Positions 2,702-37,117 are shown, counted from the stretch's first letter. The stretch: DNA of 64,000 nt from an uncultured Pseudomonadota bacterium (GCA_937983055.1 CALJLA010000068.1:784-64783), one strand, 5' to 3'. Notes: a model not told the origin generated them from the letters alone. Numbers and translations: made by a program.

Positions 2702-3757
2702 CTAGGTTGGACCGGTCTGTGGCGTGGCGAAGAAGTCCGCGGTGACGCCGAGCGCACGGTCGGTCGCGGCGATGGAGCGAGCCGCGTCGCGCTCCATGCC
2801 GGTCAGCGCTCGGATGGCGTCGATGGTCTCCGGCACGACGATCGCCTGGTTGAAGACCTGGTAGGTGTAGAACGCCTCCTTGCCTTCGACGGCAACACCG
2901 TCCTCCCAGAGCGCGACTTCCCACAAATCGCCTCGCGGCCGGCCGATATCGAGCATGAGTTCGGTGGTGGCATTGAGCGCCACCAGCCCGTCGTCCATGC
3001 GCAGGAATGCAATCCGCGGCGCCGCGCGAAACGCGGCCAGAACCTCATCGCGCGTCGCTTCTTGCGTCAATTCGACCCACCAGGTGTGTAGATGGCTGGA
3101 GTTGTGCGCGGCTTTCACGGCCGTCGTCACGACGTCCAGGGACGGATCGACCGTTTGCGCGTCCGGGCCCTGATGGCTCGGAATCACTTTCTCGGGAACG
3201 ACCGTATTCATGATGCCTTCCGCGTGGCCTTCCCACGGATCCGAAGCACGTCGCACGAGGGTACCCCGGGCACGTTTCAGCAGCCCTGCGGACTTCAGCG
3301 CGCCCAGGGTCCGCACAATCGAGGTCGTATTACAGGAAACCACGCGCGTGCAGTCCCGGTCCAGCGCACTGGCATAGTTGGCCTGGGCGACGAAGGAGTG
3401 CCCGGTGAGCGCATGCGACTCACCGCCCTGGAAGATCGATTTGATCTTGGCCGCGTCGTATCTTGCCCGGTTGCCGGCCGCTACGTGCTTGGGCGTGCAG
3501 TCGACAACGACCGCGGCCTCCGCCAAGAGCTCGTCGAGGGTGCCCGCACTGGCGATATCGTGCGCCGCGAAGGTCGACCGGGCCTCCGGACTCGCCGCGT
3601 ACAGGGGGATGTCCAGGCGATTGGCGGTTCGGGTGCGGTAGTCGGCGACCACGTCGGCAACACCGACCAGCGTCATGTCCGCTTGTTGCTGAACGGCATC
3701 GGCGATGCGCTTGCCGATCACCCCGTATCCGTTGATTGCGACCTTGACTCGACTCAT
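2702..3757 (-). CDS. gap: type II (archaeal-type) glyceraldehyde-3-phosphate dehydrogenase
   Basis: MSRVKVAINGYGVIGKR Rossmann N-terminus and the VVSCNTTS active-site motif of class II GAPDH. The start was moved to the internal ATG at 3757 from the ORF-track start at 3823. Confidence 0.85.
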   Translation of the reverse strand: MSRVKVAINGYGVIGKRIADAVQQQADMTLVGVADVVADYRTRTANRLDIPLYAASPEARSTFAAHDIASAGTLDELLAEAAVVVDCTPKHVAAGNRARYDAAKIKSIFQGGESHALTGHSFVAQANYASALDRDCTRVVSCNTTSIVRTLGALKSAGLLKRARGTLVRRASDPWEGHAEGIMNTVVPEKVIPSHQGPDAQTVDPSLDVVTTAVKAAHNSSHLHTWWVELTQEATRDEVLAAFRAAPRIAFLRMDDGLVALNATTELMLDIGRPRGDLWEVALWEDGVAVEGKEAFYTYQVFNQAIVVPETIDAIRALTGMERDAARSIAATDRALGVTADFFATPQTGPT

Positions 3758-3832
3758 GTTGTTACTCGCTTGTCCGAATGGCGGTGAAGGCGCGCACCCG
3801 GACCATGCCCGGTGCCTGACCACGAAGGTTCA

Positions 3833-3865
3833 ACCGTACGACCTGTACCCAACTGTCAGGTCAAG
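3833..3865 (-). promoter_or_regulatory. MerR-type promoter/operator (TTGACC-N20-TACGGT) facing the gap operon
   Basis: The reverse complement reads CTTGACCTGACAGTTGGGTACAGGTCGTACGGT, with a 20-bp spacer and the dyad GACCTG-N11-CAGGTC. It is an exact inverted copy of the site at 3909-3937. Confidence 0.55.
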
Positions 3866-3908
3866 GCCCGGTGCTCGACGAGGATCGGGCGTCGTTCGAC
3901 CGCGTCGG

Positions 3909-3941
3909 CTTGACCTGACAGTTGGGTACAGGTCGTAGTCT
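3909..3941 (+). promoter_or_regulatory. MerR-type promoter/operator (TTGACC-N20-TAGTCT) facing the SDR-HMBD operon
   Basis: CTTGACCTGACAGTTGGGTACAGGTCGTAGTCT, located 59 bp upstream of the ATG at 4000. It has the same dyad as 3837-3865. Confidence 0.55.
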
Positions 3942-3999
3942 TCCCCGTTTAGCCATCGACGCTTGGCGCTCGATGTCGTTCTGGACCAGGGGATTCAAT

Positions 4000-5331
4000 A
4001 TGCCATCGCATACCGGCGCAGTCTTGATTACGGGCGCCAACGGCCGCATCGGCTCCGCCGTCATGAAGCGTCTTCGCCAACAATTCAGTGACGTGGTGGG
4101 CTTTGATCGACAAGCGTCGTCGCCGCCGCCGGCGGACTGTGTCTTCATACCGGTCGACATCACCTCGGACGCCGACGTGGAGGAGGGTCTTCGGACGCTC
4201 GGCGAGCACCATGGCCGTCGGATCGCGTCGGTGATTCACCTGGCGGCGTACTATGACTTTTTGGGCCGCGCGAGCCCAAAGTACGATGCGATTACCGTCG
4301 AGGGTACGCGACGCCTGTTGCGCGGCTTGAAGTCGTTCGAGGTCGAGCAGTTCATTTTTTCCAGCACCATGTTGGTGCACGCGCCGGGCGAACCCGGGGA
4401 GTTCATCAACGAAGATTGGCCCATTGGGCCAACCTGGGCCTACCCGGAATCCAAGGTGTGCACGGAAGCGGTGATCCATGAAGAGCGGGGCAGTATTCCT
4501 GCGGTGATCCTGCGGCTGGCCGGCGTGTACGACGATGTGTGTCATTCGCCGCCACTGGCGCACCAGATTCAGCGCATCTACGAGCGACAACTGGCCGGTC
4601 ACCTGTACTCCGGCGAGACCTCGCACGGCCAGGCATTCGTTCACCTCGACGACGTCGTGGACGCCATCGAGGCGGCGGTGATGCGACGATCGGAGCTGCC
4701 CGCCGAGGTCCCCATACTCATCGGTGAGCCGGATACGCTGAGCTACGACGAGCTGCAGCACACCTTCATGCGCCTGATCCATGGCAAGTCGTCGGAAACA
4801 CACAATGTGCCCGGGCTCATCGCCAAGGTCGGCGCCTGGCTTCAGAACCTGATGCCCGGCAAGAAACCGTTCATCAAACCCTGGATGATCGATCGCGCCA
4901 ACGACCACTACGCGCTCGACATCACGCGAGCTCGTTCATTGCTGGATTGGCTGCCCAAGCATACGCTGCGGCAAACCCTGCCGAGGATGGTTGCTGCCCT
5001 GCAGGCCGATCCGATCGCCTGGTATCGCGAGCACGGCCTCGAGCCGAGCACCGCCGTCAGAGAACAGGCGCGGCAGGCCGCGCCGGAACCCGTCGCCACA
5101 GCGGCAATCGACCGCAAAAAGCCGCACAGCTGCCCGCTGCACCCGGGAGTTTGTCAATCATCGCCCGGCAATTGTCCGCGTTGCGGGACGGCACTCGAAC
5201 CGCTTGGCGCGCCAGCGACTGCGTATAGCTGCCCCATGCATCCCGAGGTCGTGAGCAAGGAACCCGGTCGCTGCCCGAAGTGCGGCATGCCGCTGGAACG
5301 ATGTGACATCCCGGAGGAAGGCCATGCATGA
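4000..5331 (+). CDS. NAD(P)-dependent epimerase/dehydratase-family SDR fused to two C-terminal heavy-metal-binding (HMBD) zinc-ribbon-like motifs
   Basis: TGANGRIG Rossmann motif and YPESK catalytic YxxxK. The C-terminus carries [24 protein letters not shown] and [24 protein letters not shown]. The start was set at the ATG at 4000. Confidence 0.75.
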
Positions 5332-6913
5332 CCATCATGCCGGGCACGGACACACCACGGCGGCAGACTCCGCTGACGAGTACACCTGCCCCATGCACCC
5401 GGAGGTGGTGCAGAACGAACCGGGGGACTGTCCGAAATGCGGCATGACCCTGGTGTTGCGCGATTCGGCCAAACCGGCGGCTGGACACGGCGACATGATG
5501 GTCGAGAGCCACCGCAATATGCTCTGGCCGCATTATCTCAACCTGATGCTCGGCCTCTGGTTGCTGTTGAGCCCGTTCACGCTCGGTTACATGAGCGATT
5601 TCGTGCCCGATGCCAAGCAGCTCTGGGTTATGGCCGATCGCGGATTGCCGCCGTTCGAGCTGCGCAATCTGTGGATGACCTGGAGCGATGTGATCAGCGG
5701 CATCCTGGTCATCGTCTTCAGCGTCCTGTCAGCCGATGCCTGGCGGCGCAATCCCTGGGCGCAATGGGCCAACGCCTTCGTCGGCGTGTGGCTGTTGTTG
5801 GCGCCGCTGGTGTTCTGGACACCCCTGCCTGAGGCCTATGCCAACGGTACCCTGGTCGGCGGTCTGGTCATCGCGCTCTCGGTGCTCATCCCGATGATGC
5901 CGGGGATGAGCATGGCCGGCATGATGGGCAAGCCGGATGTGCCGCCGGGCTGGGCCTACACGCCGTCGAGCTGGTTGCAGCGCATGCCGATTGGTGTACT
6001 CGCCCTGATTGGCTTTCTTATCGCGCGCGTGCTCGGCGCCTATCAGCTCGGCCACATCGATACCGTCTGGGAGCCGTTTTTCGCCGGTGTCGGCGAGAAC
6101 AAGGACGTGATGAACGGCACCGAGTCCATCATCACCTCGGACGTCTCCAAGGCCTGGCCGATCGCCGACGGCGCGCTGGGCGCTATCGTCTACACGCTCG
6201 AACTGGCCATGACCTGGATGGCCGGCAAGGACCGCTGGCGCACCATGCCCTGGATGGTGCTCGGGCTGGCAGTGCTGATCGTACCGCTGGGCGTGGTCAG
6301 CATCTATTTCATTATCATCCAGCCGATCGATATCGGTACCTGGTGCACGTTGTGCCTGATTGCCGCACTGGCGATGGCGGTGATGATTCCGTATTCGCTC
6401 AACGAGTTCGTCGCCATGGGACAGTTCCTGGTCTGGTCGCGCAGGCAGGGCAAGCCGTTCTGGCGCACCTTCTGGACCGGCGACGCCATGGACGGCGGTA
6501 GCGACGATGATGCCAGGGGGCTTGTAGCCAGCCCGCGGGAGCAATGGGCGCAGGCCACGCGCGGCGTGACCTATCCCTGGACCTTGAATCTCAGCATCGG
6601 CATCGGTGTCTGGCTCACGTTCACGCGCCTGACCTTCGGCAATGCGGGCGCCATGGCCAATAGCGATCACCTGATCGGTGCGCTGGTGGTGACGTTCTCG
6701 ATCATGGCCTGGGCCGAGGTCGGACGCGCGGTGCGCTTCATCAACGTGCCCTTCGGCGCATGGTTGATCGCCGCGCCCTGGTTGCTCGACGGCGCAGGGT
6801 CGTCACTGGCTGCCTGGAACGGCGTTATTGCCGGCATACTGCTCATCGTGCTGGCCATCCCTCGAGGCACGATCAAGGAGTCTTACGCAGGCTGGGATCG
6901 GCACATTGTCTAG
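5324..6913 (+). CDS. membrane protein: N-terminal HMBD + SPW-repeat-like segments + VKOR-like core
   Basis: [24 protein letters not shown] is followed by [14 protein letters not shown] and [13 protein letters not shown] (SPW-like). A polytopic core carries WCTLCLIAA (CxxC in a TM helix, as in VKOR). A GGAGGAAG RBS lies before the ATG at 5324, and there is an 8-nt overlap with the upstream gene. Confidence 0.65.
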
Positions 6914-7036
6914 CGTCGACGGCTCCGGTACCGGCGTCCGGCTCGAACGCAAGTGTCTGGCCAGTCTCCCCGAACCGTTAACGCGCCGGCACTCAAGGCC
7001 GGGGCGGCGCCCGGATTCAGCAAAGGAGGATCCACA

Positions 7037-8047
7037 ATGCAACTAGGAATGTTTGGTCTGGGGCGCATGGGCAGCAACATGGTGCGGCGGCTCATGAACG
7101 ACGGGCACGAGTGCGTGGTCTACAACCGCAGCGAAGGCGCCGTTCGACAGCTGCAAAGCGAAGGCGCACTTGGGGTGTTTTCGCTCGAGGAACTGATTGT
7201 CCGCCTGGAGCGCCCCCGCCGCATCTGGTTGATGATTCCGGCTGCCGTCGTCGATGACGTTCTGGCGCGCCTGGTGCCGTTGCTCGACAGCGACGACATC
7301 GTGATCGACGGCGGCAACTCGAATTACCGCGACGATATACGCCGCGGTACCGAACTCGGACAGCAAGGTGTTCATTATCTCGACGTCGGCACCAGCGGCG
7401 GGGTGGCCGGGCTGGAACGCGGCTACTGCCTGATGATCGGCGGCGACACGGACGTCGTCTCGCAGCTCAGCCCGATTTTCGCAAGCCTCGCGCCGGGTGT
7501 CGCGGCGGCAACGAAGACCCCGGGCCGAGGCCCGGGCACGGCGGAGCAGGGCTATCTGCACTGCGGTCCGCACGGCGCAGGGCATTTCGTCAAGATGGTG
7601 CACAACGGCATCGAGTACGGCGTGATGCAGTCCTATGCGGAAGGCTTCAACATTTTGCGCAACGCCAATATCGGCAAGCGCCAGCACGATGTCGATGCTG
7701 AGACCGCGCCAACGCAGGATCCGGCACATTACGCCTACGACTTCGACCTGGCAGAGATCGCCGAGTTGTGGCGCCGCGGCAGCGTTATCGCCTCCTGGCT
7801 GCTCGATCTCACGGCGGCCGCGCTGTTGCGTGATCCGGCCTTGCAGCGTTACGCGGGCCGGGTTTCGGACTCCGGCGAAGGCCGCTGGACCATCACTGCG
7901 GCGATCGAAGAAGGCGTTCCGGCGCCCGTGTTGAGTGCGGCGCTTTATGCCCGGTTCAGCTCACGCGGTGAGGCGGAGTTCGCAAACCAGGTGCTCTCGG
8001 CAATGCGCGAGGGCTTTGGCGGTCACGTCGAAAAGCCGGACGATTGA
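7037..8047 (+). CDS. gnd: 6-phosphogluconate dehydrogenase, decarboxylating (short form)
   Basis: MQLGMFGLGRMGSNMVRRL NAD(P)-binding N-terminus, with YLDVGTSGG and HFVKMVHNGIEYG motifs. An AAAGGAGGA RBS lies upstream. Confidence 0.85.
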   Translation: MQLGMFGLGRMGSNMVRRLMNDGHECVVYNRSEGAVRQLQSEGALGVFSLEELIVRLERPRRIWLMIPAAVVDDVLARLVPLLDSDDIVIDGGNSNYRDDIRRGTELGQQGVHYLDVGTSGGVAGLERGYCLMIGGDTDVVSQLSPIFASLAPGVAAATKTPGRGPGTAEQGYLHCGPHGAGHFVKMVHNGIEYGVMQSYAEGFNILRNANIGKRQHDVDAETAPTQDPAHYAYDFDLAEIAELWRRGSVIASWLLDLTAAALLRDPALQRYAGRVSDSGEGRWTITAAIEEGVPAPVLSAALYARFSSRGEAEFANQVLSAMREGFGGHVEKPDD

Positions 8048-8049
8048 GC

Positions 8050-9432
8050 ATGGACACCCACGACGCCGATGCACTGGTCATATTCGGGGTCACCGGCGAC
8101 CTGGCGTACAAGAAGATCTTTCCGGCCCTGCAGGCGTTGTTCGAGCGCGGCGATCTGAGCCTGCCCGTCGTCGGCGTGGCACGGGGCGGCTGGACCCTGG
8201 AGCGGCTGCGCGAGCGGGTGCGGGCGAGCCTTCGGGAGCATGGCAGCGTCGATGCTGACGCGTTCGCGCGCCTGTCGGCGCAACTGCGCTACGTCGACGG
8301 CGACTATCGCGATCCAGCCACCTACGACCGACTGAAGCAGGCACTGCACGACAGCCAGCGGCCACTGCACTACCTGGCGATCGCGCCGGGGATGTTCGAG
8401 ACCGTGGTGCGGGGGCTGGCGAGCGCCGACTGTTCCCGCCACGCACGCGTCGTGGTCGAGAAGCCGTTTGGCCGCGACCTGGCCTCAGCCCGTGCGCTCA
8501 ACCGCACGCTGCATCAGGTATTCCCGGAAACCGCGGTGTTTCGCATCGATCATTACCTGGGCAAGGAGGCGGTTCAAAACCTGTTGTACTTCCGCTTTGC
8601 CAACACCTTCCTCGAGCCGATTTGGAATCAGCATCACGTCGCTGCTATTCACGTGACCATGGCCGAACGGTTCGGCGTGCAGGGTCGTGGCAAATTTTAC
8701 GAGGAGGTGGGCGCCATTCGCGACGTGGTGCAAAACCACCTGCTGCAGGTCATCGCGCTGCTGACGATGGATGCGCCGACGGGTCGCGATCCGCAAGCGA
8801 CGCGCGCGGAGAAGCTGCGCATTTTGCGTGCGATGCGGCCGGTCGATCCCTCGCAGCTCGTGCGCGGGCAATATCGTGGCTATCGTGACGAGCCCGGCGT
8901 CGCGGGCGACTCCGACGTTGAGACCTTCGCCGCATTTCGCTTGTACATCGACACCTGGCGCTGGTCCGGTGTGCCGATCGTGGTGCGTACCGGCAAATGC
9001 CTGCCGCTGACGGTCACGGAGGTGATCGTGCAGCTGTGCCAGCCGCCGCTCGCCATTTTCGATCCAGTCACGCCGGCAGCGGCAAACTACTTTCGCTTCC
9101 GCTTGAGCCCGGAGGTCGTCATCGCGGCCGGCACGCGCGTCAAGCAACCGGGGGACACCATGCGGGGCGAAGCCGCGGAGTTGATCGCCCGTCACGCACG
9201 CGCCGGGGCCGACCTGCCCTATGAACGGCTATTACGCGATGCCATCCGCGGTGACCCGGCACTGTTTACCCAGGACGAAAGCGTGGAGGCGGCCTGGCAG
9301 GTCGTCGAACCGATGCTCAGGGCGGGTGTGTCGGTAACGGAGTACGAGCCGGACACCTGGGGACCGACCAGGCTGGCGCCACAACCGGAGGGATGGCGAA
9401 ATCCCGAAGCGGAGGCGAGCAAACCGTGTTAA
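8050..9432 (+). CDS. zwf: glucose-6-phosphate 1-dehydrogenase
   Basis: IFGVTGDLAYKKIFPAL and RIDHYLGKE signature motifs. The start overlaps or abuts the gnd stop. Confidence 0.9.
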   Translation: MDTHDADALVIFGVTGDLAYKKIFPALQALFERGDLSLPVVGVARGGWTLERLRERVRASLREHGSVDADAFARLSAQLRYVDGDYRDPATYDRLKQALHDSQRPLHYLAIAPGMFETVVRGLASADCSRHARVVVEKPFGRDLASARALNRTLHQVFPETAVFRIDHYLGKEAVQNLLYFRFANTFLEPIWNQHHVAAIHVTMAERFGVQGRGKFYEEVGAIRDVVQNHLLQVIALLTMDAPTGRDPQATRAEKLRILRAMRPVDPSQLVRGQYRGYRDEPGVAGDSDVETFAAFRLYIDTWRWSGVPIVVRTGKCLPLTVTEVIVQLCQPPLAIFDPVTPAAANYFRFRLSPEVVIAAGTRVKQPGDTMRGEAAELIARHARAGADLPYERLLRDAIRGDPALFTQDESVEAAWQVVEPMLRAGVSVTEYEPDTWGPTRLAPQPEGWRNPEAEASKPC

Positions 9433-9507
9433 TCACGAAGACACAACACGCGCGGGCTCGGGTTCGCGGCCGGCGTGGGTAAGCGGTAGTTGAGTTAAGG
9501 AGTCAAG

Positions 9508-9672
9508 ATGGACTGGCTGGCAGAGAATTGGTTTTGGGTGCTGATCGGTATTGTGTTTGTCGCGATGCACCTGTTCGGACATGGTGGCCATGGTGGCCGC
9601 GGCGGGCATGCCGGTCACGGCGGCTCGCGGGATGCTGAGCGCGGCGATCAGAAGCAGCAACACCGGCATTGA
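9508..9672 (+). CDS. small membrane/His-rich peptide, DUF2933-like
   Basis: 54-aa ORF below the ORF-track cutoff: MDWLAENWFWVLIGIVFVAMHLFGHGGHGGRGGHAGHGGSRD.... An AAGGAG RBS sits 6 nt upstream. It lies immediately 5' of a P1B ATPase, which is the usual DUF2933 context. Confidence 0.5.
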   Translation: MDWLAENWFWVLIGIVFVAMHLFGHGGHGGRGGHAGHGGSRDAERGDQKQQHRH

Positions 9673-9690
9673 CCGGTCAACGGGACAATC

Positions 9691-12060
9691 ATGAGCAAAT
9701 CTACTATTGAAGTCGCGGGACTGCTGTCCGCGTCAAGCGCGGCCGGCGTCGAAAAGCAATTGATGCGACTGCGCGGCGTACGCAAAGCCGAAGTCAATTA
9801 TGTGGCTGGCAGCGCGACCGTCACCTACGACGAAAACGTCATCGATCTCGCGGCAATCAAGGCACAAATTCATGCCTGCGGGTACCACTGCCGGGGGGAG
9901 ATGGTGCCGAAACACATCTGCGCCCCGGCCAATCCGGCCGACGGGCCAACGGCTGCGGTCGCCGATCATCCGGCAACCCATCATCATGACACGCACGCTG
10001 CGCCCGAAGCACAAGGCGACGAGACGGCGGGCATGGCGCACGAAATGGGCCACGGTGGCGGGATGGACATGCAGGCCATGGTGCGCGATATGCGCAAGCG
10101 CTTCTGGGTCTGTTTGGCGTTCACCGTGCCGATCTTCATTTACTCGCCGATGGGGGGGCTGTTCACACCGCCAGCGCCGCCCTTCGGCCTGGACCTCAAC
10201 CTGTGGCTTTTCTTGTTGGCCAGTATCGCGGTCATCTGGCCAAGCTGGCCATTCTTCGTGGCCGCCTGGCGGGCGCTGAAAAACGGTGTCCTCAACATGG
10301 CGGTGCTGGTGGTGCTGTCGGTCGGTACCGGCTACTTGTTCAGTCTCGGGGCGACGTTTTTTTTCGACGGTGTGCAATTCTTCGAGGCGGTGGCGGTACT
10401 GCTGGTGTTCATCCTGCTCGGGCACTGGTTGGAGATGCGCGCTCGCGCCGGCGCCTCCGATGCGATTCGCTCTCTGATGGATCTCGCGCCGCCCAAGGCC
10501 ACCGTGCTGCGCGATGGCCGGGAACTGGAGATACCGACGGCGGAGGTGGCCAAAGACGACATCGTCGTGATCCGGCCCGGCAACAAGATCCCGGTGGACG
10601 GCGAGGTGCTCGAAGGCGAATCCCAGGTGGATGAGTCCATGCTCACCGGCGAATCCATGCCGGTCGGCAAGAAGCCCGGCGACACGGTGATCGGCGCCAC
10701 GATCAACAAAAGCGGCAGTTTCAAGTACCAGGCGACCAAGGTGGGCGCCGATACCGCCCTGGCACAGATCGTCAAGCTGGTACAGGAAGCACAGAACTCC
10801 AAGGCCCCCGCCCAGTTGCTGGCGGACAAAGCCTCGCAATGGCTGGTGGTGATCGCGATTGTCATTGGTCTGCTGACGTTTGCGGCCTGGTTCTGGTGGC
10901 TCGGTCAGACCTTGCTGTTTGCCGTCACTCTTACGATCACGGTATTCGTCATCGCCTGCCCGGATGCTCTGGGCCTCGCCACACCCATGGCGGTGATGGT
11001 AGGCACGGGCCTTGGTGCGAAGAACGGCATTCTGTTCAAGAATGCTTCCGCCCTCGAAGAGGCCACCAAGCTCGATATCGTCGTTTGCGACAAGACCGGT
11101 ACGTTGACCATGGGTGAACCGCAAGTCGTGGAGGTCGTCGCCGGCGATGCCGGCGAGGATGCCGTTCTTAGCCTCGCCGCCACCGTGGAACAAGGCTCGG
11201 ACCATCCACTGGCCCAGGCCATTCAGCGTCGCGCCGAGGGACTCACGCTCTCGCCGCTGCGTGGCTTTGAGAACATTGAGGGCAAGGGTGCGCGCGCCGA
11301 GGTGGACGGTCAAACCGTGTTCCTCGGTAATCGGCGTTTGATGGACGAGGAGGGTGTTGACCTGGCAAGCCTCGCAGACGAGGCGGCTCGCCTGCAGGGC
11401 GCCGGTCAGACCGTGGTGCACATTGCCCACGGCGGCCGCCTGGTGGGACTGATCGCGATCGCCGATGCGCCACGACCGACGGCGGCAGCGATGGTGGCAA
11501 AAATGCGCGAGCGGGGTGTGGAGGTTGCCATGCTCACCGGCGACAATCAGGCGACCGCCGAGCGTATTGCGGGGGAACTCGGTATACAGACGGTGATAGC
11601 CGACGTGTTACCCGCGCAAAAAGCCGACAAGATCAAGGAACTGCAAGCGCAAGGCAAGAAGGTCGGGATGGTCGGCGACGGCGTCAACGATGCGCCAGCA
11701 TTGACCCAGGCGGAGGTTGGATTCGCGATCGGCGCCGGTACCGACGTTGCCATGGAAAGCGCTGACGTCGTGCTCATGAAAAGCGATCCCTATGACGTGC
11801 TTGGCGCTATCGAACTGTCGCGTGCCACGCTGCGCAAGATGCACCAGAATTTGTTCTGGGCGGTGGCGTACAACGTGATTGCCTTTCCGGCGGCGGCTGG
11901 GGTTTTCTATCCACTGGTGATCAGTCCTGAAGTGGCGGCACTTGCGATGTCGGGCAGCTCGGCGTTGGTGGCAGTGAACGCGTTGCTGCTGAAACGCACG
12001 CGCCTGGAGGGCATCCGAACCGTGCGGTCCGCTACCAGCATAGATCCGCAAAGCGACTGA
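9691..12060 (+). CDS. heavy-metal P1B-type ATPase, CopB-like (His-rich N-terminus, CPD transmembrane motif)
   Basis: [15 protein letters not shown], YNxxxxP and MSGSS motifs. The TM motif reads [12 protein letters not shown]. The N-terminal HMA-like fold has SASS in place of CxxC and is followed by a His/Met-rich stretch. Confidence 0.9.
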
Positions 12061-12090
12061 AGATTGCACCGTCAATTCCCTGGTCACCGC

Positions 12091-12122
12091 TTGACGTGTG
12101 TCGGACATACACGTTGTAGAGT
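12091..12122 (+). promoter_or_regulatory. candidate MerR-type promoter (TTGACG-N20-TAGAGT) with ACGTGT/ACACGT dyad
   Basis: TTGACGTGTGTCGGACATACACGTTGTAGAGT lies between the ATPase stop and pgm. It has a long spacer and a dyad ACGTGT-N9-ACACGT. Confidence 0.4.
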
Positions 12123-12281
12123 CCGCGGGTAGACCGAAGAAGCGTACTCGAGGCTGGCCATGACTCCTGTAAGTTCAGTATCTTGCTGCCGCTACTGCGT
12201 TCCATCGCAGGGTGCCACCGAATTAGCGAGTTGCCGCGGCGGCATCGACACGCGCGCCGTCGGTCTGCACGAGATTGATTC

Positions 12282-13997
12282 GTGAGTGGCGTCGCCGAGT
12301 CAGCCACAGACACGAGCGTAGTCGCAGGGAAACCCGCGTCACGCGAGATGCTGATTGACGTATCGAAGCTCGTAGAGGCGTACCACGCCGAGCGGCCCAA
12401 TCCTCGTGTTGCGGCCGAACGAGTCGCGTTCGGGACGTCGGGCCACCGGGGTTCGGCGCTTTCCAGGAGTTTCAACCAGAACCACATTCTCGCCATCAGC
12501 CAGGCCATTTGTGACTACCGACGGACACAGGAGTTCGACGGGCCACTGTTTATTGGCATGGACACCCATGCCCAGTCCGAGCCAGCGTTTGCCACGGCGC
12601 TCGAGGTGCTGGCGGCGAATGGCGTCCAGGCTATGATCGCCGGCGACGAAAAATACACTCCTACGCCCGCCATCTCTCACGCTATCTTGCAGTACAATCG
12701 CACCGGCCCAGCAGGTCTGGCCGACGGCATCGTCATTACCCCATCACACAACCCGCCCGACAGCGGCGGCTTCAAGTACAACCCACCGACCGGCGGACCG
12801 GCGAACACGTCAGTGACGGACTGGATCGAAGCCAGGGCCAACGAGCTGTTGCAACAGGACCTGGTCGGCGTGCAGCGGATGCCGATCGAAAAGGCGCTGC
12901 GTGTCAGCACAACCCATCGCTACGATTACCTCAATACCTATGTCAACGACCTCGATCAGGTCGTTGACATGGCAACAATCCGCGCCGCCGGGATCCGCAT
13001 CGGGGTCGACCCCCTGGGCGGCGCCGGGGTCAACTACTGGCCGGCAATTGCGGAGCGATATGGCCTGGATCTGGACGTCGTCAATGCGGTCGTGGACCCG
13101 ACCTTTAGTTTCATGACGCTGGATTGGGATGGGCAGATCCGTATGGACCCGTCGTCAGAGTACGCGATGCAACGGCTAATCGCGTTCAAGGACCACTACG
13201 ACGTTGCGCTCGGCTGCGATCCTGACCATGACCGGCACGGCATCGTCGTGCCGGATGAGGGTTTGATGCCGGCAAATCACTATCTGGCGGTTGCCATCGC
13301 CTATCTTTACCGTCACCGGCCGGGCTGGCGCTTCCCCGCAGCCGTGGGCAAAACCATCGTCAGCAGCCAGATGATTGACCGGGTGGCCGAGAGTGTCGAG
13401 CGGCGCGTCTATGAAGTGCCGGTCGGCTTCAAGTGGTTCGTGGCAGGCCTCAAGGATGGATCGCTGGGGTTTGCCGGCGAAGAGAGTGCCGGGGCGTCAT
13501 TCGCGCGACGTGACGGACACGTCTGGACCACGGACAAAGATGGCCTGGTGCCGGCGCTGCTCGCCGCCGAGATGACTGCGCGAAGGGGTCGAAACCCTGG
13601 CGAAGCCTATCGCGAACTGGTGCAGGCGTTCGGTGCTTGCGCCTACACCCGCATTGAAGCCCCGGCTACGGCCGCGGAGAAATCGATCATCGCCAACCTC
13701 ACAGCGGAACAGGTTCAAGCGACCGAGCTCGCCGGCACAGCTGTCGACGGCGTCCTGACCCGTGCGCCGGCCAACAACGCATCCATCGGCGGCTTGAAGG
13801 TTACGACGGCACAGGGCTGGTTTGCTGCGCGTCCGTCCGGCACAGAAGCCCTGTACAAAATCTACGCCGAGAGTTTTCGCAACACGGATCACCTGCAACG
13901 TATCGTCAACGAAGCACAACATCTGATTGGCGAAGTACTCGCAGCCGCCGCAGGGTCCGGCCCGTCGGCTGCGACATCGGCAAGGAAGGCCCCGTGA
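12282..13997 (+). CDS. pgm: phosphoglucomutase (alpha-D-glucose phosphate-specific)
   Basis: FGTSGHRGSA and TPSHNPPDSGGFKYN motifs. By recall it is collinear with E. coli Pgm along its whole length. Confidence 0.9.
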   Translation: MSGVAESATDTSVVAGKPASREMLIDVSKLVEAYHAERPNPRVAAERVAFGTSGHRGSALSRSFNQNHILAISQAICDYRRTQEFDGPLFIGMDTHAQSEPAFATALEVLAANGVQAMIAGDEKYTPTPAISHAILQYNRTGPAGLADGIVITPSHNPPDSGGFKYNPPTGGPANTSVTDWIEARANELLQQDLVGVQRMPIEKALRVSTTHRYDYLNTYVNDLDQVVDMATIRAAGIRIGVDPLGGAGVNYWPAIAERYGLDLDVVNAVVDPTFSFMTLDWDGQIRMDPSSEYAMQRLIAFKDHYDVALGCDPDHDRHGIVVPDEGLMPANHYLAVAIAYLYRHRPGWRFPAAVGKTIVSSQMIDRVAESVERRVYEVPVGFKWFVAGLKDGSLGFAGEESAGASFARRDGHVWTTDKDGLVPALLAAEMTARRGRNPGEAYRELVQAFGACAYTRIEAPATAAEKSIIANLTAEQVQATELAGTAVDGVLTRAPANNASIGGLKVTTAQGWFAARPSGTEALYKIYAESFRNTDHLQRIVNEAQHLIGEVLAAAAGSGPSAATSARKAP

Positions 13998-16540
13998 GCG
14001 AGCAAATTATTGCTGACGATCTGGCTTACAGTCTGTTGCCCTTCGGCATCGAGGGTGTGGATGCGCTGGTTGAGTTGGCCCTGGATTTACGGTCCTCGTG
14101 GCATCACGGCACCGATACGCTGTGGCAGCAGCTCGATCCTGAGCTTTGGCAAGCCACCCAGAATCCCTGGGTCGTGCTGCAGACAGTCTCGCGGGAGCGG
14201 CTGGAACGCTGTCTGGCCGACGATGCTTTTCGTAAACACGTCGATAAGCTGGTCCGGAGCAGACGGGATGCGGCACGCGCCCCCGCGTGGTTCCAACAAC
14301 ACCATGCGCAAGCCCCGTTGAACGCCGCTGCCTATTTCAGCATGGAGTTCATGTTGAGCGAGGCGCTCCCCATCTACTCGGGCGGGCTCGGCAACGTGGC
14401 GGGCGATCAGCTGAAAGCGGCGAACGATCTCGGCGTGCCCGTGATTGGCGTGGGCTTGCTATACCAACAAGGCTATTTTCGCCAACTGATAGGCCCGGAC
14501 GGCATCCAACAGGCGGCGTATCCCTACAACGATCCCGGACAGCTGCCTGTGACGCCGTTGCGCCATGCCAACGGTGAGTGGCTGCGACTGAAGCTGGACC
14601 TGCCGGGTCATTCGATCTGGCTGCGTGCCTGGCAAGCCCGGGTCGGTCGTTTGAAACTGTATTTGTTGGACACCAACGATGCGGCCAATCATCCGCCCTA
14701 TCGCGGCATTACCAGCGAACTGTATGGCGGGGGATCGGAATTGCGCCTGATGCAGGAAATGGTGCTGGGCATCGGCGGTTGGCGTTTGCTGTCGACGCTC
14801 GGTGTCCAACCCGACGTCTGCCACCTCAATGAAGGGCACGCGGCACTGGTGGTGCTCGAACGCGCGCGCCAGTTCATGCTTGACACCGGTGCGAGCTTCG
14901 CTGTGGCGCTCGCCGCAACGCGCGCCGGTAACCTGTTCACCACGCACACGGCGGTGCCCGCTGGCTTCGACCGCTTCACCTCGGCGCAGATGGAGCACTG
15001 CCTGGGCACCTACGCCGAGACGCAGCTCGGTATTGCTCGCGATGAGTTGTTGGCTCTGGGCCGTCAGCGTCCCGATGACGTTACCGAGCCGTTCAATATG
15101 GCCTATCTCGCGATTCGCGGTTGCGGCGCGGTCAACGGGGTAAGCTGGCTGCACGGCCGGGTCAGCCGTCGCTTGTTCGCTGCCTTGTTTCCGCGCTGGG
15201 CCGAGCCGGAAGTGCCGATCGGACACATCACCAATGGTGTGCACACACCGACCTGGGATTCCGCGCAGGCGGACGCCTTGTGGACCGAGGCCTGCGGCCA
15301 GGAACGCTGGCTGGGCACCACCGAAGCGCTGGGGCGCGACATCTGCTGTGTCTCGGATGCGGAGCTTTGGCAGTTCCGCAGCGCCGCCAGCGCAGCGCTG
15401 GTTGATTACGTTCGCGAGCGTCTGTCGCAACAACGGGCTGCCGCCGGCCCGACACCGAATGCGATCGAGAGCGGCGCGCAGCCGCTCGATCCGGGGACGC
15501 TCACCATCGGCTTCGCGCGCCGTTTTGCGACCTACAAGCGACCGGACCTGCTGCTGCACGATCCGGCGCGATTGTTGAAGTTGCTCACGGACCCCGAGTG
15601 CCCGGTGCAACTGGTCATTGCCGGCAAGGCGCATCCGGCAGACGCCGCCGGGCAGGCGCTGATCCGGCGCTGGATCGAATTCGCACAGTGGCCCGACGCG
15701 AAGGATCGCGTGGTCTTTCTCAGCGACTACGACATGCACATGGCTGAGCATCTGGTGCAGGGCGTTGACGTCTGGCTCAACACGCCGCGACGGCCGTGGG
15801 AAGCCAGCGGCACGAGCGGCATGAAGGTGTTGGTGAACGGTGGGCTCAATATCTCCGAACTGGATGGCTGGTGGGCGGAAGCCTACACGCCGGAGGTGGG
15901 CTGGGCGCTGGGCGACGGTCAGGAACACGGTGACGATCCGGCCTGGGATGCGACTGAGGCCGAAGCGCTTTATGACCTTCTGGAACACAAGGTCGCTCCA
16001 GAATTCTACCAGCGAGACGAGCACGGCATCCCGCGCGCCTGGGTGGCGCGCATGCGCAACAGCATGGCGGAGTTGACGCCGCGGTTTTCCACCAATCGCA
16101 CGGTACGCGAATACACCGAACGCTATTACCTACCGGCTGCCGCCGCGTACCGCGCCCGCGCGGCGAATTCGGGGCAGTTGGCGGAGAGCATCGTGAACTG
16201 GCGTCGCCGGCTGGACGATCACTGGCCGACCCTGCAATTCGGCGAACTCACCGTTGCAACGAGCCACGAGCAGCACGACTTTTCGATTGAGCTCGATCTG
16301 GGCGAGTTGGGTGCGGACGATATCACGGTCGAACTTTACGCCGAGCCGCAGGAGGACCAGGCACCGGTGCGTGTACCCATGACACCCGGTGAGACGTCGA
16401 ACGGTACCGACAAGCGTTGGCTGTACGCCGCCTCGGTACCCGCCGAACGACCACCCGAGCACTACACAGCACGAGTGGTGCCGCGGTATCCCGACGTGGC
16501 GGTGCCGCTGGAAGCGCTGCCTATCCTTTGGCAGCGATGA
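13994..16540 (+). CDS. glgP: alpha-glucan (glycogen/maltodextrin) phosphorylase, GT35
   Basis: 848-aa ORF with GGLGNVAGDQLKA and EASGTSGMK (PLP-lysine region). The GTG start overlaps the pgm stop (GTGA). Confidence 0.9.
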   Translation: MSEQIIADDLAYSLLPFGIEGVDALVELALDLRSSWHHGTDTLWQQLDPELWQATQNPWVVLQTVSRERLERCLADDAFRKHVDKLVRSRRDAARAPAWFQQHHAQAPLNAAAYFSMEFMLSEALPIYSGGLGNVAGDQLKAANDLGVPVIGVGLLYQQGYFRQLIGPDGIQQAAYPYNDPGQLPVTPLRHANGEWLRLKLDLPGHSIWLRAWQARVGRLKLYLLDTNDAANHPPYRGITSELYGGGSELRLMQEMVLGIGGWRLLSTLGVQPDVCHLNEGHAALVVLERARQFMLDTGASFAVALAATRAGNLFTTHTAVPAGFDRFTSAQMEHCLGTYAETQLGIARDELLALGRQRPDDVTEPFNMAYLAIRGCGAVNGVSWLHGRVSRRLFAALFPRWAEPEVPIGHITNGVHTPTWDSAQADALWTEACGQERWLGTTEALGRDICCVSDAELWQFRSAASAALVDYVRERLSQQRAAAGPTPNAIESGAQPLDPGTLTIGFARRFATYKRPDLLLHDPARLLKLLTDPECPVQLVIAGKAHPADAAGQALIRRWIEFAQWPDAKDRVVFLSDYDMHMAEHLVQGVDVWLNTPRRPWEASGTSGMKVLVNGGLNISELDGWWAEAYTPEVGWALGDGQEHGDDPAWDATEAEALYDLLEHKVAPEFYQRDEHGIPRAWVARMRNSMAELTPRFSTNRTVREYTERYYLPAAAAYRARAANSGQLAESIVNWRRRLDDHWPTLQFGELTVATSHEQHDFSIELDLGELGADDITVELYAEPQEDQAPVRVPMTPGETSNGTDKRWLYAASVPAERPPEHYTARVVPRYPDVAVPLEALPILWQR

Positions 16541-16574
16541 GCGCGGCAGGACAGACAAGAAGGGGCTACTGACA

Positions 16575-17252
16575 ATGCAAGACTACATCGCCCATTCGGG
16601 TACCTGGGCCTTGGCGCTGATCATGATCGTAATCGCCTCCTGGCTGCTGTATCGCTTCCTGGCGCCGAAGAGCTGGCGGGAGTGGGCAAGCGCCGGTCTG
16701 GTGCAGGCCTTCATCATCGCCCTGTACGCGGAAATGTACGGCTTCCCGCTGACGATTTATCTGCTGGTCCGCTTCTTTGGCATGGACAGAATCAATCTGA
16801 ACGCCAATTTGTGGTCGACATTACTCGGTATGGGTGAGACCGGCATGATGATCGCGATGCTGCTGGGCTACGGCCTGCTGTTTATCGGCATCGGCCTGTT
16901 TATCCAGGGGTGGCGCGAGCTCTACCGCGCACGCAAGGAAAACCGGCTCGCAACGGATGGCCTGTACGGCCTAGTGCGCCATCCACAGTACTCGGGACTG
17001 TTTCTCGCATTATTCGGCGAGGGGGTCGTGCATTGGCCGACCGTGTTTTCCATTACCGTGTTTCCGTTGATCGTCGTGGCTTACGTGCTGCTCGCACGAC
17101 GCGAGGAGAAAAAAGTGATCGCCGAGTTCGGCGATGCGTACCGCGCCTATCGGCGCCAGGTACCGATGTTCTTTCCGCGTGCGGGCCAGTGGAAGCAACT
17201 CATTGCGCGCTCCAATATTTCAGAGCCAGGACGCCATGACCGTCCAGGATGA
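16575..17252 (+). CDS. isoprenylcysteine carboxyl methyltransferase (ICMT)-family membrane methyltransferase (CzcN-like)
   Basis: LATDGLYGLVRHPQYSGLFLALFG motif and a polytopic profile. The start was set at the ATG at 16575 (MQDYIAH). Confidence 0.7.
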   Translation: MQDYIAHSGTWALALIMIVIASWLLYRFLAPKSWREWASAGLVQAFIIALYAEMYGFPLTIYLLVRFFGMDRINLNANLWSTLLGMGETGMMIAMLLGYGLLFIGIGLFIQGWRELYRARKENRLATDGLYGLVRHPQYSGLFLALFGEGVVHWPTVFSITVFPLIVVAYVLLARREEKKVIAEFGDAYRAYRRQVPMFFPRAGQWKQLIARSNISEPGRHDRPG

Positions 17253-17296
17253 GGCTTGTCGACGGTGTCGGTGACCACGGCAGGCTAACGTCGCGC

Positions 17297-17328
17297 TTGA
17301 CTTGAGTCCGGCATACAGGTCCTAAAGT
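17297..17328 (+). promoter_or_regulatory. MerR-type promoter (TTGACT-N20-TAAAGT)
   Basis: TTGACTTGAGTCCGGCATACAGGTCCTAAAGT with dyad GACTTG-N11-CAGGTC, located 55 bp upstream of the HMA gene. Confidence 0.5.
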
Positions 17329-17382
17329 TACCAAGAATCGCACGGCTTGCGCGCAACCTTTCCGGCAACCAGGAGTCTCACG

Positions 17383-17634
17383 ATGCAAACCGAACGCTTG
17401 TCCATTCGCGGCATGACGTGCAGTGGCTGCGTGAATACGGTGACCCGCGCTCTGCGCACGATTGATGGCGTCCACGATACCGATGTCTCGCTCGAATCGG
17501 GCACGGCGGTCGTACAGTTCGACCCGGCGTCGATTTCGATCGAGGACCTGGGCCTCGCCGTGCGGCACGCGGGCTACGACACCACAGGCGAGCCCGGTCC
17601 GCCGCAATCCGACCGTCGTTGTTGCTGCGGATAG
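17383..17634 (+). CDS. heavy-metal-associated (HMA) domain protein with a C-terminal CCCG tail
   Basis: IRGMTCSGCVNTVTRAL HMA motif. The C-terminus ends in RRCCCG. Confidence 0.8.
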   Translation: MQTERLSIRGMTCSGCVNTVTRALRTIDGVHDTDVSLESGTAVVQFDPASISIEDLGLAVRHAGYDTTGEPGPPQSDRRCCCG

Positions 17635-18200: not shown

Positions 18201-18232
18201 TTGACTTGTTAGTTACGTGCAGGTTTTACGCT
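18201..18232 (+). promoter_or_regulatory. MerR-type promoter (TTGACT-N20-TACGCT)
   Basis: TTGACTTGTTAGTTACGTGCAGGTTTTACGCT with dyad GACTTG-N11-CAGGTT, in the divergent gap between the channel gene and cfa. Confidence 0.45.
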
Positions 18233-22191: not shown

Positions 22192-22746
22192 ATGCTTAAC
22201 CAATCAACCAAGCCTTTAGGCTCGTTACATGTGGGAGAATTGGCCCGCAAGGCCAACGTGACACCCGCCGCCGTTCGATATTATGCGCGTACCGGACTGA
22301 TTCATCCCGGCCGCGAACCCGACAATGGCTATCGGTGTTTCTCCGGAGGTGATGTTCGGCGGATCGCGTTCATTCGGCGGGCTCAAGCGCTCGGTCTCAC
22401 TATCGGCGACATCAAGGCCATTCTGGATGCTGCGGACCAGGGTGAGGTGCCCTGTGATGAGGTGAAGACAATGGTGGAGCGACGGCTTACGCGGGTCAGA
22501 GACCATATCGCCGAGCTTGAAGCGAAGGAAGCGCGTATCCGCCGTGCGATTTCAGCGTGGGAGACAATGGACGAGCCGACACCCGTCGATGGAGAACTGT
22601 GCCCGCTCATCGAACGTCTGGATCGGCATAACGGCGAAGCACGGATCCAAGCACGTCGGCAACAGTCAACCGCAAACGGCGCTGGTCATCGGGGCGCTGG
22701 TCATCGGGTACGCATCAGTGACAACGCCGCGGGTGCGTCGGCTTGA
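22192..22746 (+). CDS. MerR-family regulator, paralog 1 (PCDEV / CPLIER cysteines)
   Basis: HVGELARKANVTPAAVRYYARTGL HTH, a dimerisation helix, and one Cys each in PCDEV and ELCPLIERL. The start was set at the ATG at 22192. Confidence 0.8.
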   Translation: MLNQSTKPLGSLHVGELARKANVTPAAVRYYARTGLIHPGREPDNGYRCFSGGDVRRIAFIRRAQALGLTIGDIKAILDAADQGEVPCDEVKTMVERRLTRVRDHIAELEAKEARIRRAISAWETMDEPTPVDGELCPLIERLDRHNGEARIQARRQQSTANGAGHRGAGHRVRISDNAAGASA

Positions 22747-23006
22747 GGGAAGGCCAACGCGAGCGTGATCGTTGAGGCGACAAAGCCGGACTCAGAACGA
22801 CCGTAAATTGAACGGGTCAAATTTCGGCGGCATCCGATAGAGTTCGACCACAAGATCCTTTGTTTGAAGGAAGGGACGCCGCTGGGAAAAGTTGGAGGAT
22901 CAAACGCAACACGCGATACGTGAACCCGCCAGAGACCCGCGTGATCCCGTTGTGCCCACCGTTGGATCGCGATCGAATCGGGACCGACGCCGGACCAAGA
23001 GACCTT

Positions 23007-24780: not shown

Positions 24781-24812
24781 TTGACCTGGCAGTAGGGTAC
24801 AGCTTGCACAAT
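24781..24812 (+). promoter_or_regulatory. MerR-type promoter (TTGACC-N20-CACAAT)
   Basis: TTGACCTGGCAGTAGGGTACAGCTTGCACAAT shares the GGGTACAG core with the 3.9-kb, 28.7-kb and 37.1-kb sites. It lies 73 bp upstream of hflK. Confidence 0.5.
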
Positions 24813-27445: not shown

Positions 27446-27476
27446 AGTCTAGCGGTGTATCCAAGGTACAGGTCAA
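27446..27476 (-). promoter_or_regulatory. candidate MerR-type promoter (TTGACC-N19-TAGACT)
   Basis: The reverse complement reads TTGACCTGTACCTTGGATACACCGCTAGACT, located 16 bp upstream of the ORF start at 27430. Confidence 0.35.
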
Positions 27477-28139: not shown

Positions 28140-28694
28140 ATGTCAACCCAATCCTTGTCGGCACCACCGTACGGCGCATTGCACGTTGCCGACGTTGCCA
28201 AACGCGCCAATGTAACCCCCGCGACCGTTCGCTATTACGCGCGGTCCAAGTTGTTAAGTCCAAGACGTGACCCGGAAAATGGCTATCGTTGTTTTTCATT
28301 GGCCGACGTACATCGCGTCGAGTTTATCCGCCAGGCGCAAGCGCTCGGACTTACGATTGGTGACATCAAGGGCATCCTCGAAACCGTGGATCGGGGTGCG
28401 ACGCCGTGTGACGAGGTCAAGTCGCTCGTCAAGCGGCGGCTTGAGCGCGTACAAACGCAGATCGCTGAATTGCAAGCAACGGAAGCCCGTATGACCAAGG
28501 CAGTCAGGCTGTGGCGGACCATGGACGAGCCGGTGCCGCAGGACGGGGAATACTGCCCCCTGATTGAGCGGGTCGAGGTCGAGATCTGCGGCAGTCCGGA
28601 TAGCGCCCGGCGTCAGACGCGCCGAAACCCACAACCAACCCCCTGTCATTGTCCACAGCCCAGCGAGGCGAGTCGACAGGCCTTGTCTGACTAG
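28140..28694 (+). CDS. MerR-family regulator, paralog 2
   Basis: HVADVAKRANVTPATVRYYARSKL HTH, with PCDEV, YCPLIERV and a Cys-containing tail (ICGSP, PCHCP). An AAGGAG RBS precedes the ATG at 28140. Confidence 0.8.
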   Translation: MSTQSLSAPPYGALHVADVAKRANVTPATVRYYARSKLLSPRRDPENGYRCFSLADVHRVEFIRQAQALGLTIGDIKGILETVDRGATPCDEVKSLVKRRLERVQTQIAELQATEARMTKAVRLWRTMDEPVPQDGEYCPLIERVEVEICGSPDSARRQTRRNPQPTPCHCPQPSEASRQALSD

Positions 28695-28759: not shown

Positions 28760-28791
28760 TTGACCTTGATGTTGGGTACAGGTTGCAGACT
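28760..28791 (+). promoter_or_regulatory. MerR-type promoter (TTGACC-N20-CAGACT) upstream of copAB
   Basis: TTGACCTTGATGTTGGGTACAGGTTGCAGACT matches the 37086 site at 29 of 32 positions. Confidence 0.55.
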
Positions 28792-29053
28792 GACGGCACG
28801 GTGATCTGCTAGGCCCACACGACTCAGGGATTCGACGTGACGGTGGAGTTCCCCCGCCACGGGTACGGTACGTCTATCGGAAAACCAATACGGGTCGGCG
28901 TATCCGTTGGTTTTTCGCAGCCGTCCTGAGGCGCCGGCGCAGCTGCGGACCGCGTCGGCGCGGCATGTATTGCGTCCGGATTCACTAATCTTACGGACCA
29001 CACCCCACCACGCCTTGCTGTTGATCTTGACGACACGACGAAAAAGGAGACTC

Positions 29054-37085: not shown

Positions 37086-37117
37086 TTGACCTTGATGCGG
37101 GGTACAGGTTGTAGGCT
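37086..37117 (+). promoter_or_regulatory. MerR-type promoter (TTGACC-N20-TAGGCT)
   Basis: TTGACCTTGATGCGGGGTACAGGTTGTAGGCT. About 297 nt of leader lie before the cytochrome c ATG. Confidence 0.55.

Follow-up and report, generated by a model that had tools for sequence, protein, structure and literature searches.

Why would genes that convert stored glucan into pentose phosphate lie between genes for metal efflux? This question is raised by a 64,000-nucleotide stretch of DNA from an uncultured Pseudomonadota bacterium (GCA_937983055.1, CALJLA010000068.1:784-64783; the whole stretch is called the window below), whose region 7037-16540 carries, in this order, gnd, zwf, a DUF2933 gene, a gene for a P1B-type ATPase, pgm and glgP. 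Metal-resistance islands are usually seen as sets of pumps, oxidases and chaperones, whereas here central-carbon enzymes appear to be true members of the regulon. With moderate confidence, and on the evidence of sequence, we interpret gnd-zwf together with pgm-glgP as an accessory glycogen-to-pentose-phosphate module that was drawn, on a metal-resistance island, into a regulon of MerR type that probably responds to metal. The in silico basis of this interpretation consists of the gene identities, the operon structure, a shared operator and the conservation of synteny and promoters in relatives.

The carbon genes, their promoters and their relatives

Genes were called by comparing Pfam and NCBIfam profile scores with the curated cut-offs, and catalytic motifs were checked separately (Table 1). 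Profile scores and intact motifs bore out all six genes that a preliminary description of this DNA had named, at or next to the positions it had given them. Gnd, with 336 aa, falls within the short-chain length class (about 300-340 aa); it scored 413 bits with TIGR00872 (gnd_rel, cut-off 297.2) and 459 bits with NF007161, matched the Protein Data Bank (PDB) entries 4e21 (E = 4e-147) and 8ihe, which is Gnd2 of Mycobacterium tuberculosis (E = 7e-134), and has intact GLGRMG and HNGIEY motifs. Zwf probably starts at the ATG at 8050, giving a protein of 460 aa that matches its relatives, and carries the active-site motif RIDHYLGKE at residue 167 and EKPFG (EKPxG) at residue 139; the Arg of its GVARGGW motif is invariant across the clade and would be compatible with the use of NADP+. 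Pgm shows the phosphoserine loop TPSHNP (T-x-S-H-N-P) at residue 153, and GlgP, for which glycogen or maltodextrin is the predicted substrate, has the pyridoxal phosphate-lysine motif EASGTSGMK at residue 603. The pgm and glgP genes overlap by 4 bp, gnd and zwf overlap or abut, and no terminators were found between the genes of the first operon, from the gene of a short-chain dehydrogenase/reductase (SDR) to that of the ATPase. In the related locus L089 the gap between the VKOR gene and gnd is about 28 bp.

A gene for 6-phosphogluconolactonase (pgl) had been reported as missing from the window, and indeed none of about 60 open reading frames (ORFs) scanned with Pfam over the 64 kb matched Glucosamine_iso or Lactonase. 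One ORF with a beta-propeller-like sequence (35519-36772) was considered as a pgl candidate and rejected, as it had only a weak BNR match and no Lactonase match.

A standard sigma-70 scan of positions 3600-17600 (16-18 bp spacer) yielded nothing relevant, and promoters surfaced only with a spacer of 19-20 bp. The two long-spacer promoters of the preliminary description, at 3910 for the first block of genes and at 12091 ahead of pgm, were both recovered as MerR-type promoters of the form TTGACN, 20-bp spacer with dyad, TAnnnT. The 3910 promoter serves an operon of HMBD-tagged SDR, VKOR protein, gnd, zwf, DUF2933 protein and ATPase, and a 25-mer of this site is repeated exactly, in inverted orientation, at 3864, the chance expectation of such a repeat being zero. 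An operator pattern generalised from the first sites (TTGACNTG-N9-TACASST, one mismatch allowed) has nine occurrences in the window, where chance would give 0.06, and all nine have the 20-bp spacer, the dyad, a −10 element of TAnnnT or CAnnnT and a position upstream of genes. In fetched loci amounting to 2.49 Mb, the same pattern was restricted to close relatives and locus L106. Two paralogous genes for MerR-family proteins are the candidate regulators; both products have the equivalent of Cys79 and a C-terminal CP(L/I)IE cysteine, as found in metal-sensing MerR/CadR, and the middle cysteine is absent. The nine promoters probably constitute a MerR-type, metal-responsive regulon, and their common operator supports the view that the carbon genes are wired into a metal regulon, beyond mere adjacency to it.

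Table 1. Genes and regulatory sites of the window (bits are given as score versus cut-off)
Feature	Position	Strand	Basis or remark
Type II (archaeal-type) phosphorylating glyceraldehyde-3-phosphate dehydrogenase (GAPDH)	2702..3823	-	NCBIfam NF003251, 430.5 vs 185 bits; directly 3' of the 3864(-) promoter
MerR-type promoter/operator	3841..3864	-	exact copy of the 3910 site in inverted orientation; faces the GAPDH operon
MerR-type promoter	3910..3941	+	TTGACC, 20 bp, TAGTCT; dyad ACCTG-N11-CAGGT
Extended SDR (epimerase/dehydratase fold)	4000..5331	+	Pfam; two C-terminal HMBD motifs (CPMHP...CPKCG)
Membrane protein with His-rich N-terminus, HMBD, SPW repeats and VKOR	5324..6913	+	Pfam
gnd, short-chain 6-phosphogluconate dehydrogenase	7037..8047	+	Pfam NAD_binding_2 and 6PGD; NRS motif, predicted NADP-type
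zwf, glucose-6-phosphate dehydrogenase	8044..9432	+	TIGR00871, 458.7 vs 400.6 bits; Pfam G6PD_N and G6PD_C
DUF2933 small His/Gly-rich membrane protein	9508..9672	+	21.3 vs 21 bits
P1B-type ATPase, CPD clade	9691..12060	+	TIGR01511, 609 vs 397 bits
MerR-type promoter of pgm-glgP-ICMT	12091..12122	+	TTGACG, 20 bp, TAGAGT; dyad ACGTGT-N9-ACACGT
pgm, phosphoglucomutase	12282..13997	+	TIGR01132, 838.5 vs 778 bits
glgP, alpha-glucan phosphorylase, DUF3417 type (GT35)	13994..16540	+	TIGR02094, 785.8 vs 191.7 bits
ICMT-like membrane methyltransferase	16575..17252	+	3' of glgP; served by the pgm-glgP promoter
Regulon promoter of HMA metallochaperone gene	17297..17328	+	operator pattern; gene 17383-17634
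Regulon operator/promoter of cyclopropane fatty acid (CFA) synthase gene	18201..18224	+	operator pattern
MerR-family protein, paralogue A (candidate regulator)	22192..22746	+	profile match
Regulon operator/promoter of SPFH (HflK/C-like) gene pair	24781..24804	+	operator pattern
Regulon operator/promoter of gene for a 158-aa protein of no assigned family	27453..27476	-	operator pattern; gene 26954-27430
MerR-family protein, paralogue B (candidate regulator)	28140..28694	+	61% identical to A; just upstream of the 28760 site
Regulon operator/promoter of CopA-type multicopper oxidase gene	28760..28783	+	operator pattern; gene 28907-30853
Regulon operator/promoter of cytochrome c gene	37086..37109	+	operator pattern; gene 37292-38125

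The order HMBD-SDR, HMBD-VKOR, gnd, zwf, (DUF2933), ATPase, (pgm), glgP and ICMT is kept in relatives whose Zwf is 97%, 78% and 73% identical to that of the window, so that synteny with the metal genes, on whose conservation the preliminary description had made its reading depend, extends to 72-78% Zwf identity. These relatives include one metagenome-assembled genome of the Wenzhouxiangellaceae and one locus on a 2.5-Mb contig (L089), and parts of the same gene order were found on the shorter or rearranged metagenome contigs L094 and L133. Three diverged lineages have kept the promoters of both the gnd-zwf operon and pgm/glgP: that of 3910 type is conserved in L084 and L089, and that of 12091 type precedes pgm in L084 and L088; L089 has no pgm and carries the 12091-type promoter directly before glgP. 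Furthermore, a metagenome-assembled genome of Thiogranum (L030, 583-14283) carries, in this order, gnd, merR, a palindromic TTGACCTGTGTGCGCACACAGGTC promoter and genes for CFA synthase, zwf, tal, pgm, an HMA protein with CxxC, tkt and glgP. The operator in this locus is a perfect-palindrome version of that of the window, and the locus represents an independent instance of a pentose-phosphate/glycogen operon under MerR control, here with a metallochaperone gene inside it.

The cofactor motif of Gnd bears on the products of the module. The NCBI model for short-chain Gnd names the enzyme as NAD+-dependent, and at the cofactor-binding position 4e21 has YDLN and 8ihe, deposited as NAD+-dependent, has YDHD, whereas the window protein reads VVYNRSEG (N30-R31-S32). 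Asp occupies this position in about 48 of the 62 short Gnd homologues among the fetched loci; an N-R motif is present in the window Gnd, in all five metal-linked relatives (L084, L088, L089, L094 and L133) and in L030. In the long-chain 6-phosphogluconate dehydrogenases an Asn-Arg-Thr/Ser triplet contacts the 2'-phosphate of NADP+. The NRS motif thus predicts the use of NADP+, that is, a switch from NAD to NADP in the metal-linked clade, and such a switch would be consistent with selection for NADPH production. A yield of 2 NADPH had been stated in the preliminary description; the motif speaks in its favour, and the yield is best regarded as predicted, Gnd being of the short-chain type that is modelled as NAD+-dependent.

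The CPD-type ATPase and its neighbours

The ATPase encoded between the two pairs of carbon genes has CPD in transmembrane helix (TM) 4, YN in TM5 and MSGSS in TM6, a His/Met-rich N-terminus and an N-terminal HMA-like domain that is Cys-less, without CxxC. It had been described as CopB-like, an assignment that did not hold: P1B-3 CopB proteins have CPH in TM4 and MSxST in TM6, and a true CPH ATPase encoded as a neighbour in locus L041 carries MSIST; the His/Met-rich N-terminus is a likeness to CopB. Its closest solved structure is Legionella CopA (PDB 3rfu, 553 bits), and with this protein and the P1B-1 group it shares the YN of TM5 and the MxxSS pattern of TM6; assignment to P1B-1 was nevertheless rejected, as CPD replaces CPC and the HMA-like domain lacks CxxC. 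The Asp in place of the second Cys of CPC may point to a pump substrate other than Cu(I).

Related ATPase loci were collected from metagenomes with a TM4 probe (L092-L171, n = 80) and from plasmids (L002, L091 and L172-L176), and CPD was invariant in all 80 of the metagenome loci as well as in those plasmid homologues that were aligned, a conserved CGYHC motif being a further mark of the clade. Members occur on about 27 plasmids at an amino-acid identity of at least 60% and are common in marine and soil metagenomes; the exact ATPase sequence of the window matched only a 6-kb Logan contig, and among plasmid DNA no relative spans the region, matches being limited to the ATPase and fragments. As our literature search retrieved no paper on a CPD-type clade of P1B ATPases, the clade is apparently undescribed.

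The genes within 10 kb were recorded for 53 ATPase loci of at least 9 kb. Among these, ppk2 was found in 11 loci, xfp in 10, ackA in seven, pgm in six and type II GAPDH in five, and a central-carbon or glycogen gene was present in 23 of the 53, or in 32 when ppk2 was counted, mostly on the same strand as the ATPase gene. The commonest neighbour of the clade is ICMT. Unbiased clustering of neighbours added, besides ICMT, a triad of metallo-beta-lactamase (MBL), phosphoribosyl pyrophosphate (PRPP) synthetase and thymidine phosphorylase genes, major facilitator superfamily (MFS) transporters, CFA synthase, LemA, DUF6629 and PLD; the 158-aa protein of the window (26954-27430) is also a recurrent neighbour. 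The triad, made up of a beta-CASP MBL RNase, a thymidine-phosphorylase-like and a PRPP-synthetase-like protein, stands beside CPD ATPases in 10-11 loci (L104, L110, L134, L147, L173 and others) and may represent a route that salvages pentose from RNA and nucleotides.

Annotated plasmids repeat this picture. The ATPase gene is accompanied by ppk2, FBA, glgX, pgm, pgi, tkt, glgP and ackA on a Methylophaga plasmid, by ppk2, xfp and ackA on one of Polaromonas, by xfp (phosphoketolase), glk and ackA on one of Nitrobacter, and by an MFS transporter gene and DUF344 (= PPK2) on one of Xanthobacter; a Ralstonia pickettii plasmid has ppk2 and the triad next to copRS/copABCD, and a Methylocystis plasmid has the order type II GAPDH, ATPase, PfkB-family kinase. 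On a Roseovarius plasmid (L176, 9798-18699) the ATPase gene is followed by genes for YfcC, arginine deiminase, ornithine carbamoyltransferase and carbamate kinase on the same strand, and then by SDR and type II GAPDH genes, so that a complete, ATP-yielding arginine deiminase pathway is present. In Bradyrhizobium, the MBL/PRPP-synthetase/thymidine-phosphorylase triad and phosphoketolase are induced by microoxia (PMC6515984), and DUF2933-ICMT is FixK2-dependent (PMC9104804).

Tentatively, and with clearly less conviction than we attach to the recruitment of the carbon genes, the CPD ATPase may be seen as the core of a mobile 'self-fuelled pump' island, with DUF2933, ICMT, DUF6629 and interchangeable modules that would supply ATP or NADPH independently of respiration: glycogen to pentose phosphate, phosphoketolase with acetate kinase, arginine deiminase, PPK2 acting on polyphosphate, or RNA to pentose. 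In the window, nine or more promoters would then have tied the package to a new sensor of the MerR family, and Gnd would have been re-tuned from NAD+ to NADP+.

Proposed mechanism, alternatives and known systems

From the arrangement described above we infer inducibility, the nature of the signal, cofactor use and a physiological role, which may be put together as follows. One or both MerR paralogues would bind the operators in the nine promoters with a 20-bp spacer and, upon a signal, activate them. This would induce the CPD-type P1B ATPase, the DUF2933 protein, the HMBD-tagged redox proteins, the HMA chaperone, the multicopper oxidase, the SPFH proteins, CFA synthase and type II GAPDH, and with the same signal GlgP, Pgm, Zwf and Gnd. 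Stored glucan would be converted to glucose-1-phosphate, glucose-6-phosphate, 6-phosphogluconate and ribulose-5-phosphate, with NADPH arising from Zwf and, if the NRS motif is a guide, also from Gnd, and the pentose phosphate would enter lower glycolysis as ATP-yielding triose at the level where type II GAPDH acts. The cell would thereby gain reducing power and some energy from its reserves while it handles metal stress, and energy may be as much a product of the module as reducing power.

Several observations weigh against this interpretation. Relatives of the ATPase mostly stand beside pathways that yield ATP and not NADPH. Both MerR paralogues remained below every NCBIfam equivalog cut-off (best 88-90 bits against 143-168 for CueR, ZntR, CadR/PbrR and MerR), and with the middle cysteine absent as well, neither falls within one of these metal-sensing subfamilies. 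By our own reading of the sequence the HMBD-tagged SDR looks NAD-type, with an Asp after the second beta strand, and therefore no consumer of NADPH is evident next door. The oxidative branch of the pentose phosphate pathway is incomplete within the window, the pgl step being missing; this function may be provided by a gene elsewhere or by spontaneous hydrolysis of the lactone. In L089 a regulon-type promoter at 1369 (+) precedes glgC, a gene of glycogen synthesis, and a gene for a CBM48 protein, and genes for glycogen branching or debranching lie just upstream of this site; the regulon there may control the synthesis as well as the breakdown of glycogen, a poor fit to a purely catabolic switch. 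Finally, the pairing of the carbon genes is itself common. A profile search of genome contigs with a Zwf alignment gave, among the matches listed, 80 loci with Zwf 49-66% identical to that of the window, and among these matches a gnd homologue lay within 10 kb of zwf in 54 of the 80, directly upstream in about 45, while an ATPase was almost never found near gnd-zwf; locus L036 has an operon gnd-zwf-HAD-tkt-pgm-glgP without metal genes. Since gnd-zwf pairs are common and operons like that of L036 occur without metal genes, the carbohydrate module would have existed beforehand and been recruited to the metal regulon in one lineage group.

The preliminary description had proposed a dedicated, stress-inducible supply of reducing power for the adjacent functions. 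The shared operator, the conserved promoters and synteny and the NADP-type motif of Gnd are in line with an inducible supply of this kind; its dedication to reducing power fares less well, as no adjacent consumer of NADPH is evident and the ATPase clade is found mostly with ATP generation or the mobilisation of reserves.

The last point leads to an alternative that we rate as rather unlikely, in which energy and not NADPH is the main product. Reserves would be turned into ATP without respiration, so that the P-type ATPase could be powered while the respiratory chain is disabled by metal stress or low oxygen, and the oxidative pentose phosphate steps would mainly supply pentose phosphates and triose for substrate-level phosphorylation. 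The CPD-ATPase clade recurs beside ATP-yielding or reserve-mobilising genes in metagenome loci and on plasmids alike, some of the accessory modules are induced by low oxygen in Bradyrhizobium (PMC6515984; PMC9104804), and the window itself holds a ppk2 remnant and a co-regulated type II GAPDH gene. Against this, xfp, ackA, tal, tkt and arc genes are all missing from the window, its variant of the module retains precisely the two NAD(P)H-yielding steps, and the apparent NADP-type switch of Gnd is specific to the metal-linked clade and would not be selected by ATP supply alone.

Copper inactivates Fe-S dehydratases and GAPDH. The enzymes could on this ground be replacement isozymes, metal-tolerant substitutes or bypasses for housekeeping enzymes poisoned by metal, with Gnd bypassing the [4Fe-4S] 6-phosphogluconate dehydratase of the Entner-Doudoroff pathway and the archaeal-type GAPDH replacing a copper-sensitive type I GAPDH. 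This would fit the identical operator of the GAPDH gene and the fact that neither the four carbon enzymes nor the GAPDH are of the types canonical for Proteobacteria (Gnd is short-chain, Zwf is Zwf1-like, GlgP is of the DUF3417 type and the GAPDH is type II); as metals are not known to target Pgm, GlgP or Zwf and the NADP-motif switch would be left unexplained, we consider it improbable. Least probable of all is that the carbohydrate operon and an ATPase-DUF2933-ICMT copper module are passenger DNA fused by island mosaicism without functional coupling: the base carbohydrate operon does stand alone (L036), as does MerR-ATPase-cupredoxin-DUF2933-ICMT in Alteromonas (PMC8478169), and the GC content of 0.62-0.64 at 2-16 kb, compared with mostly 0.55-0.61 in other parts of the window, is consistent with a mosaic island, but three lineages keep a dedicated regulon-type promoter upstream of pgm/glgP, synteny is kept at 72-78% identity, Thiogranum has an independent MerR-controlled version and the ATPase clade is repeatedly and independently associated with carbon and energy genes.

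Recruitment of the carbon genes into a metal regulon, the explanation that we prefer, can be set beside several known systems. In E. coli, zwf belongs to the SoxRS regulon, and there too a MerR-family activator ultimately raises glucose-6-phosphate dehydrogenase for NADPH under stress. In the window, by contrast, the operator lies directly on the operon promoter without a SoxS intermediate, the regulon adds gnd, pgm, glgP and metal-handling genes, and the regulators resemble MerR/CadR/ZntR, their SoxR scores being 37-47 bits against a cut-off of 117. The zwf1-gnd2 pair of M. tuberculosis (Rv1121-Rv1122) likewise has a short-chain Gnd adjoining Zwf; its Gnd2 differs in having YDHD and a deposition as NAD+-dependent, where the window has YNRS. 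The mycobacterial pair is not known to have a metal context.

Closer to the metal side, a module of Alteromonas and other marine Gammaproteobacteria combines ATPase, DUF2933 and ICMT under MerR on copper-resistance islands or plasmids (PMC8478169); it has no carbon-metabolism genes, whereas the window lacks the cupredoxin and has gnd-zwf and pgm-glgP interleaved. In C. metallidurans CH34 a zwf region is listed among those upregulated by a metal mix (PMC11647585). The low-oxygen loci, namely lxa of B. cenocepacia (PMC3721108) and the FixK2/microoxia regulon of B. diazoefficiens (PMC6515984; PMC9104804), resemble the window in joining a cation ATPase with enzymes of fermentation or reserve turnover (acetate kinase, phosphoketolase, the MBL/PRPP-synthetase/thymidine-phosphorylase triad and DUF2933-ICMT) that are induced when respiration is limited, but they are governed by regulators of the CRP/FNR type and not of the MerR type. 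The lxa locus was also considered as a homologue and rejected in view of its CRP/FNR regulators and its lack of gnd, zwf and glgP, the likeness being one of functional analogy only (PMC3721108).

Our literature search found no report of a MerR or copper regulon that includes genes of the pentose phosphate pathway. To our knowledge, and within the literature searched, three features have no earlier description: an efflux operon interspersed with a module that leads from glycogen into the oxidative pentose phosphate steps under direct MerR control, a Gnd that has apparently switched from NAD to NADP, and membership in a regulon of nine promoters. They suggest that a resistance island can carry its own fuel supply; if so, resistance has a metabolic arm through which stored glycogen meets the redox and energy costs of detoxification. 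Loci for metal stress and for survival at low oxygen are, in addition, linked through shared accessory modules. A defined operator, two candidate regulators, the predicted cofactor switch of Gnd and an uncharacterised clade of CPD ATPases offer entry points.

The wider island

The operon divergent from that of the carbon genes begins with type II GAPDH, followed by genes for two membrane proteins and an esterase (57-2680). The HMBD-SDR and HMBD-VKOR genes are kept in relatives as the first two genes of the main operon; in the VKOR domain protein CTLC is present and no loop cysteines were seen. The remainder of the window is a metal-resistance island, with cusRS, genes for two multicopper oxidases, a second ATPase of HMBD type, a cation diffusion facilitator transporter and an outer-membrane efflux protein, as well as several merR genes and merT. 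No tRNA genes were found in the window, so that this marker of an island border is absent.

Two gene remnants were also detected. The ppk2 remnant mentioned above (22860-22973) encodes a 38-aa fragment of polyphosphate kinase 2 with 55% identity, fused in frame to the start of an AidB ORF, and a C-terminal fragment of a MerR paralogue (41203-41403; 52% over 67 aa) lies near a promoter of CueR type. The latter promoter, at 41601 (+), is MerR-type with another operator, the CueR-like ACCTTCCC-N5-GGGAAGGT, has a 19-bp spacer and stands upstream of the gene for the HMBD-type ATPase (41878). A further MerR-type promoter with its own operator, CTGGAG-N3-CTCCAG, was found at 61632 (+), beside merR/merT at the end of the window.

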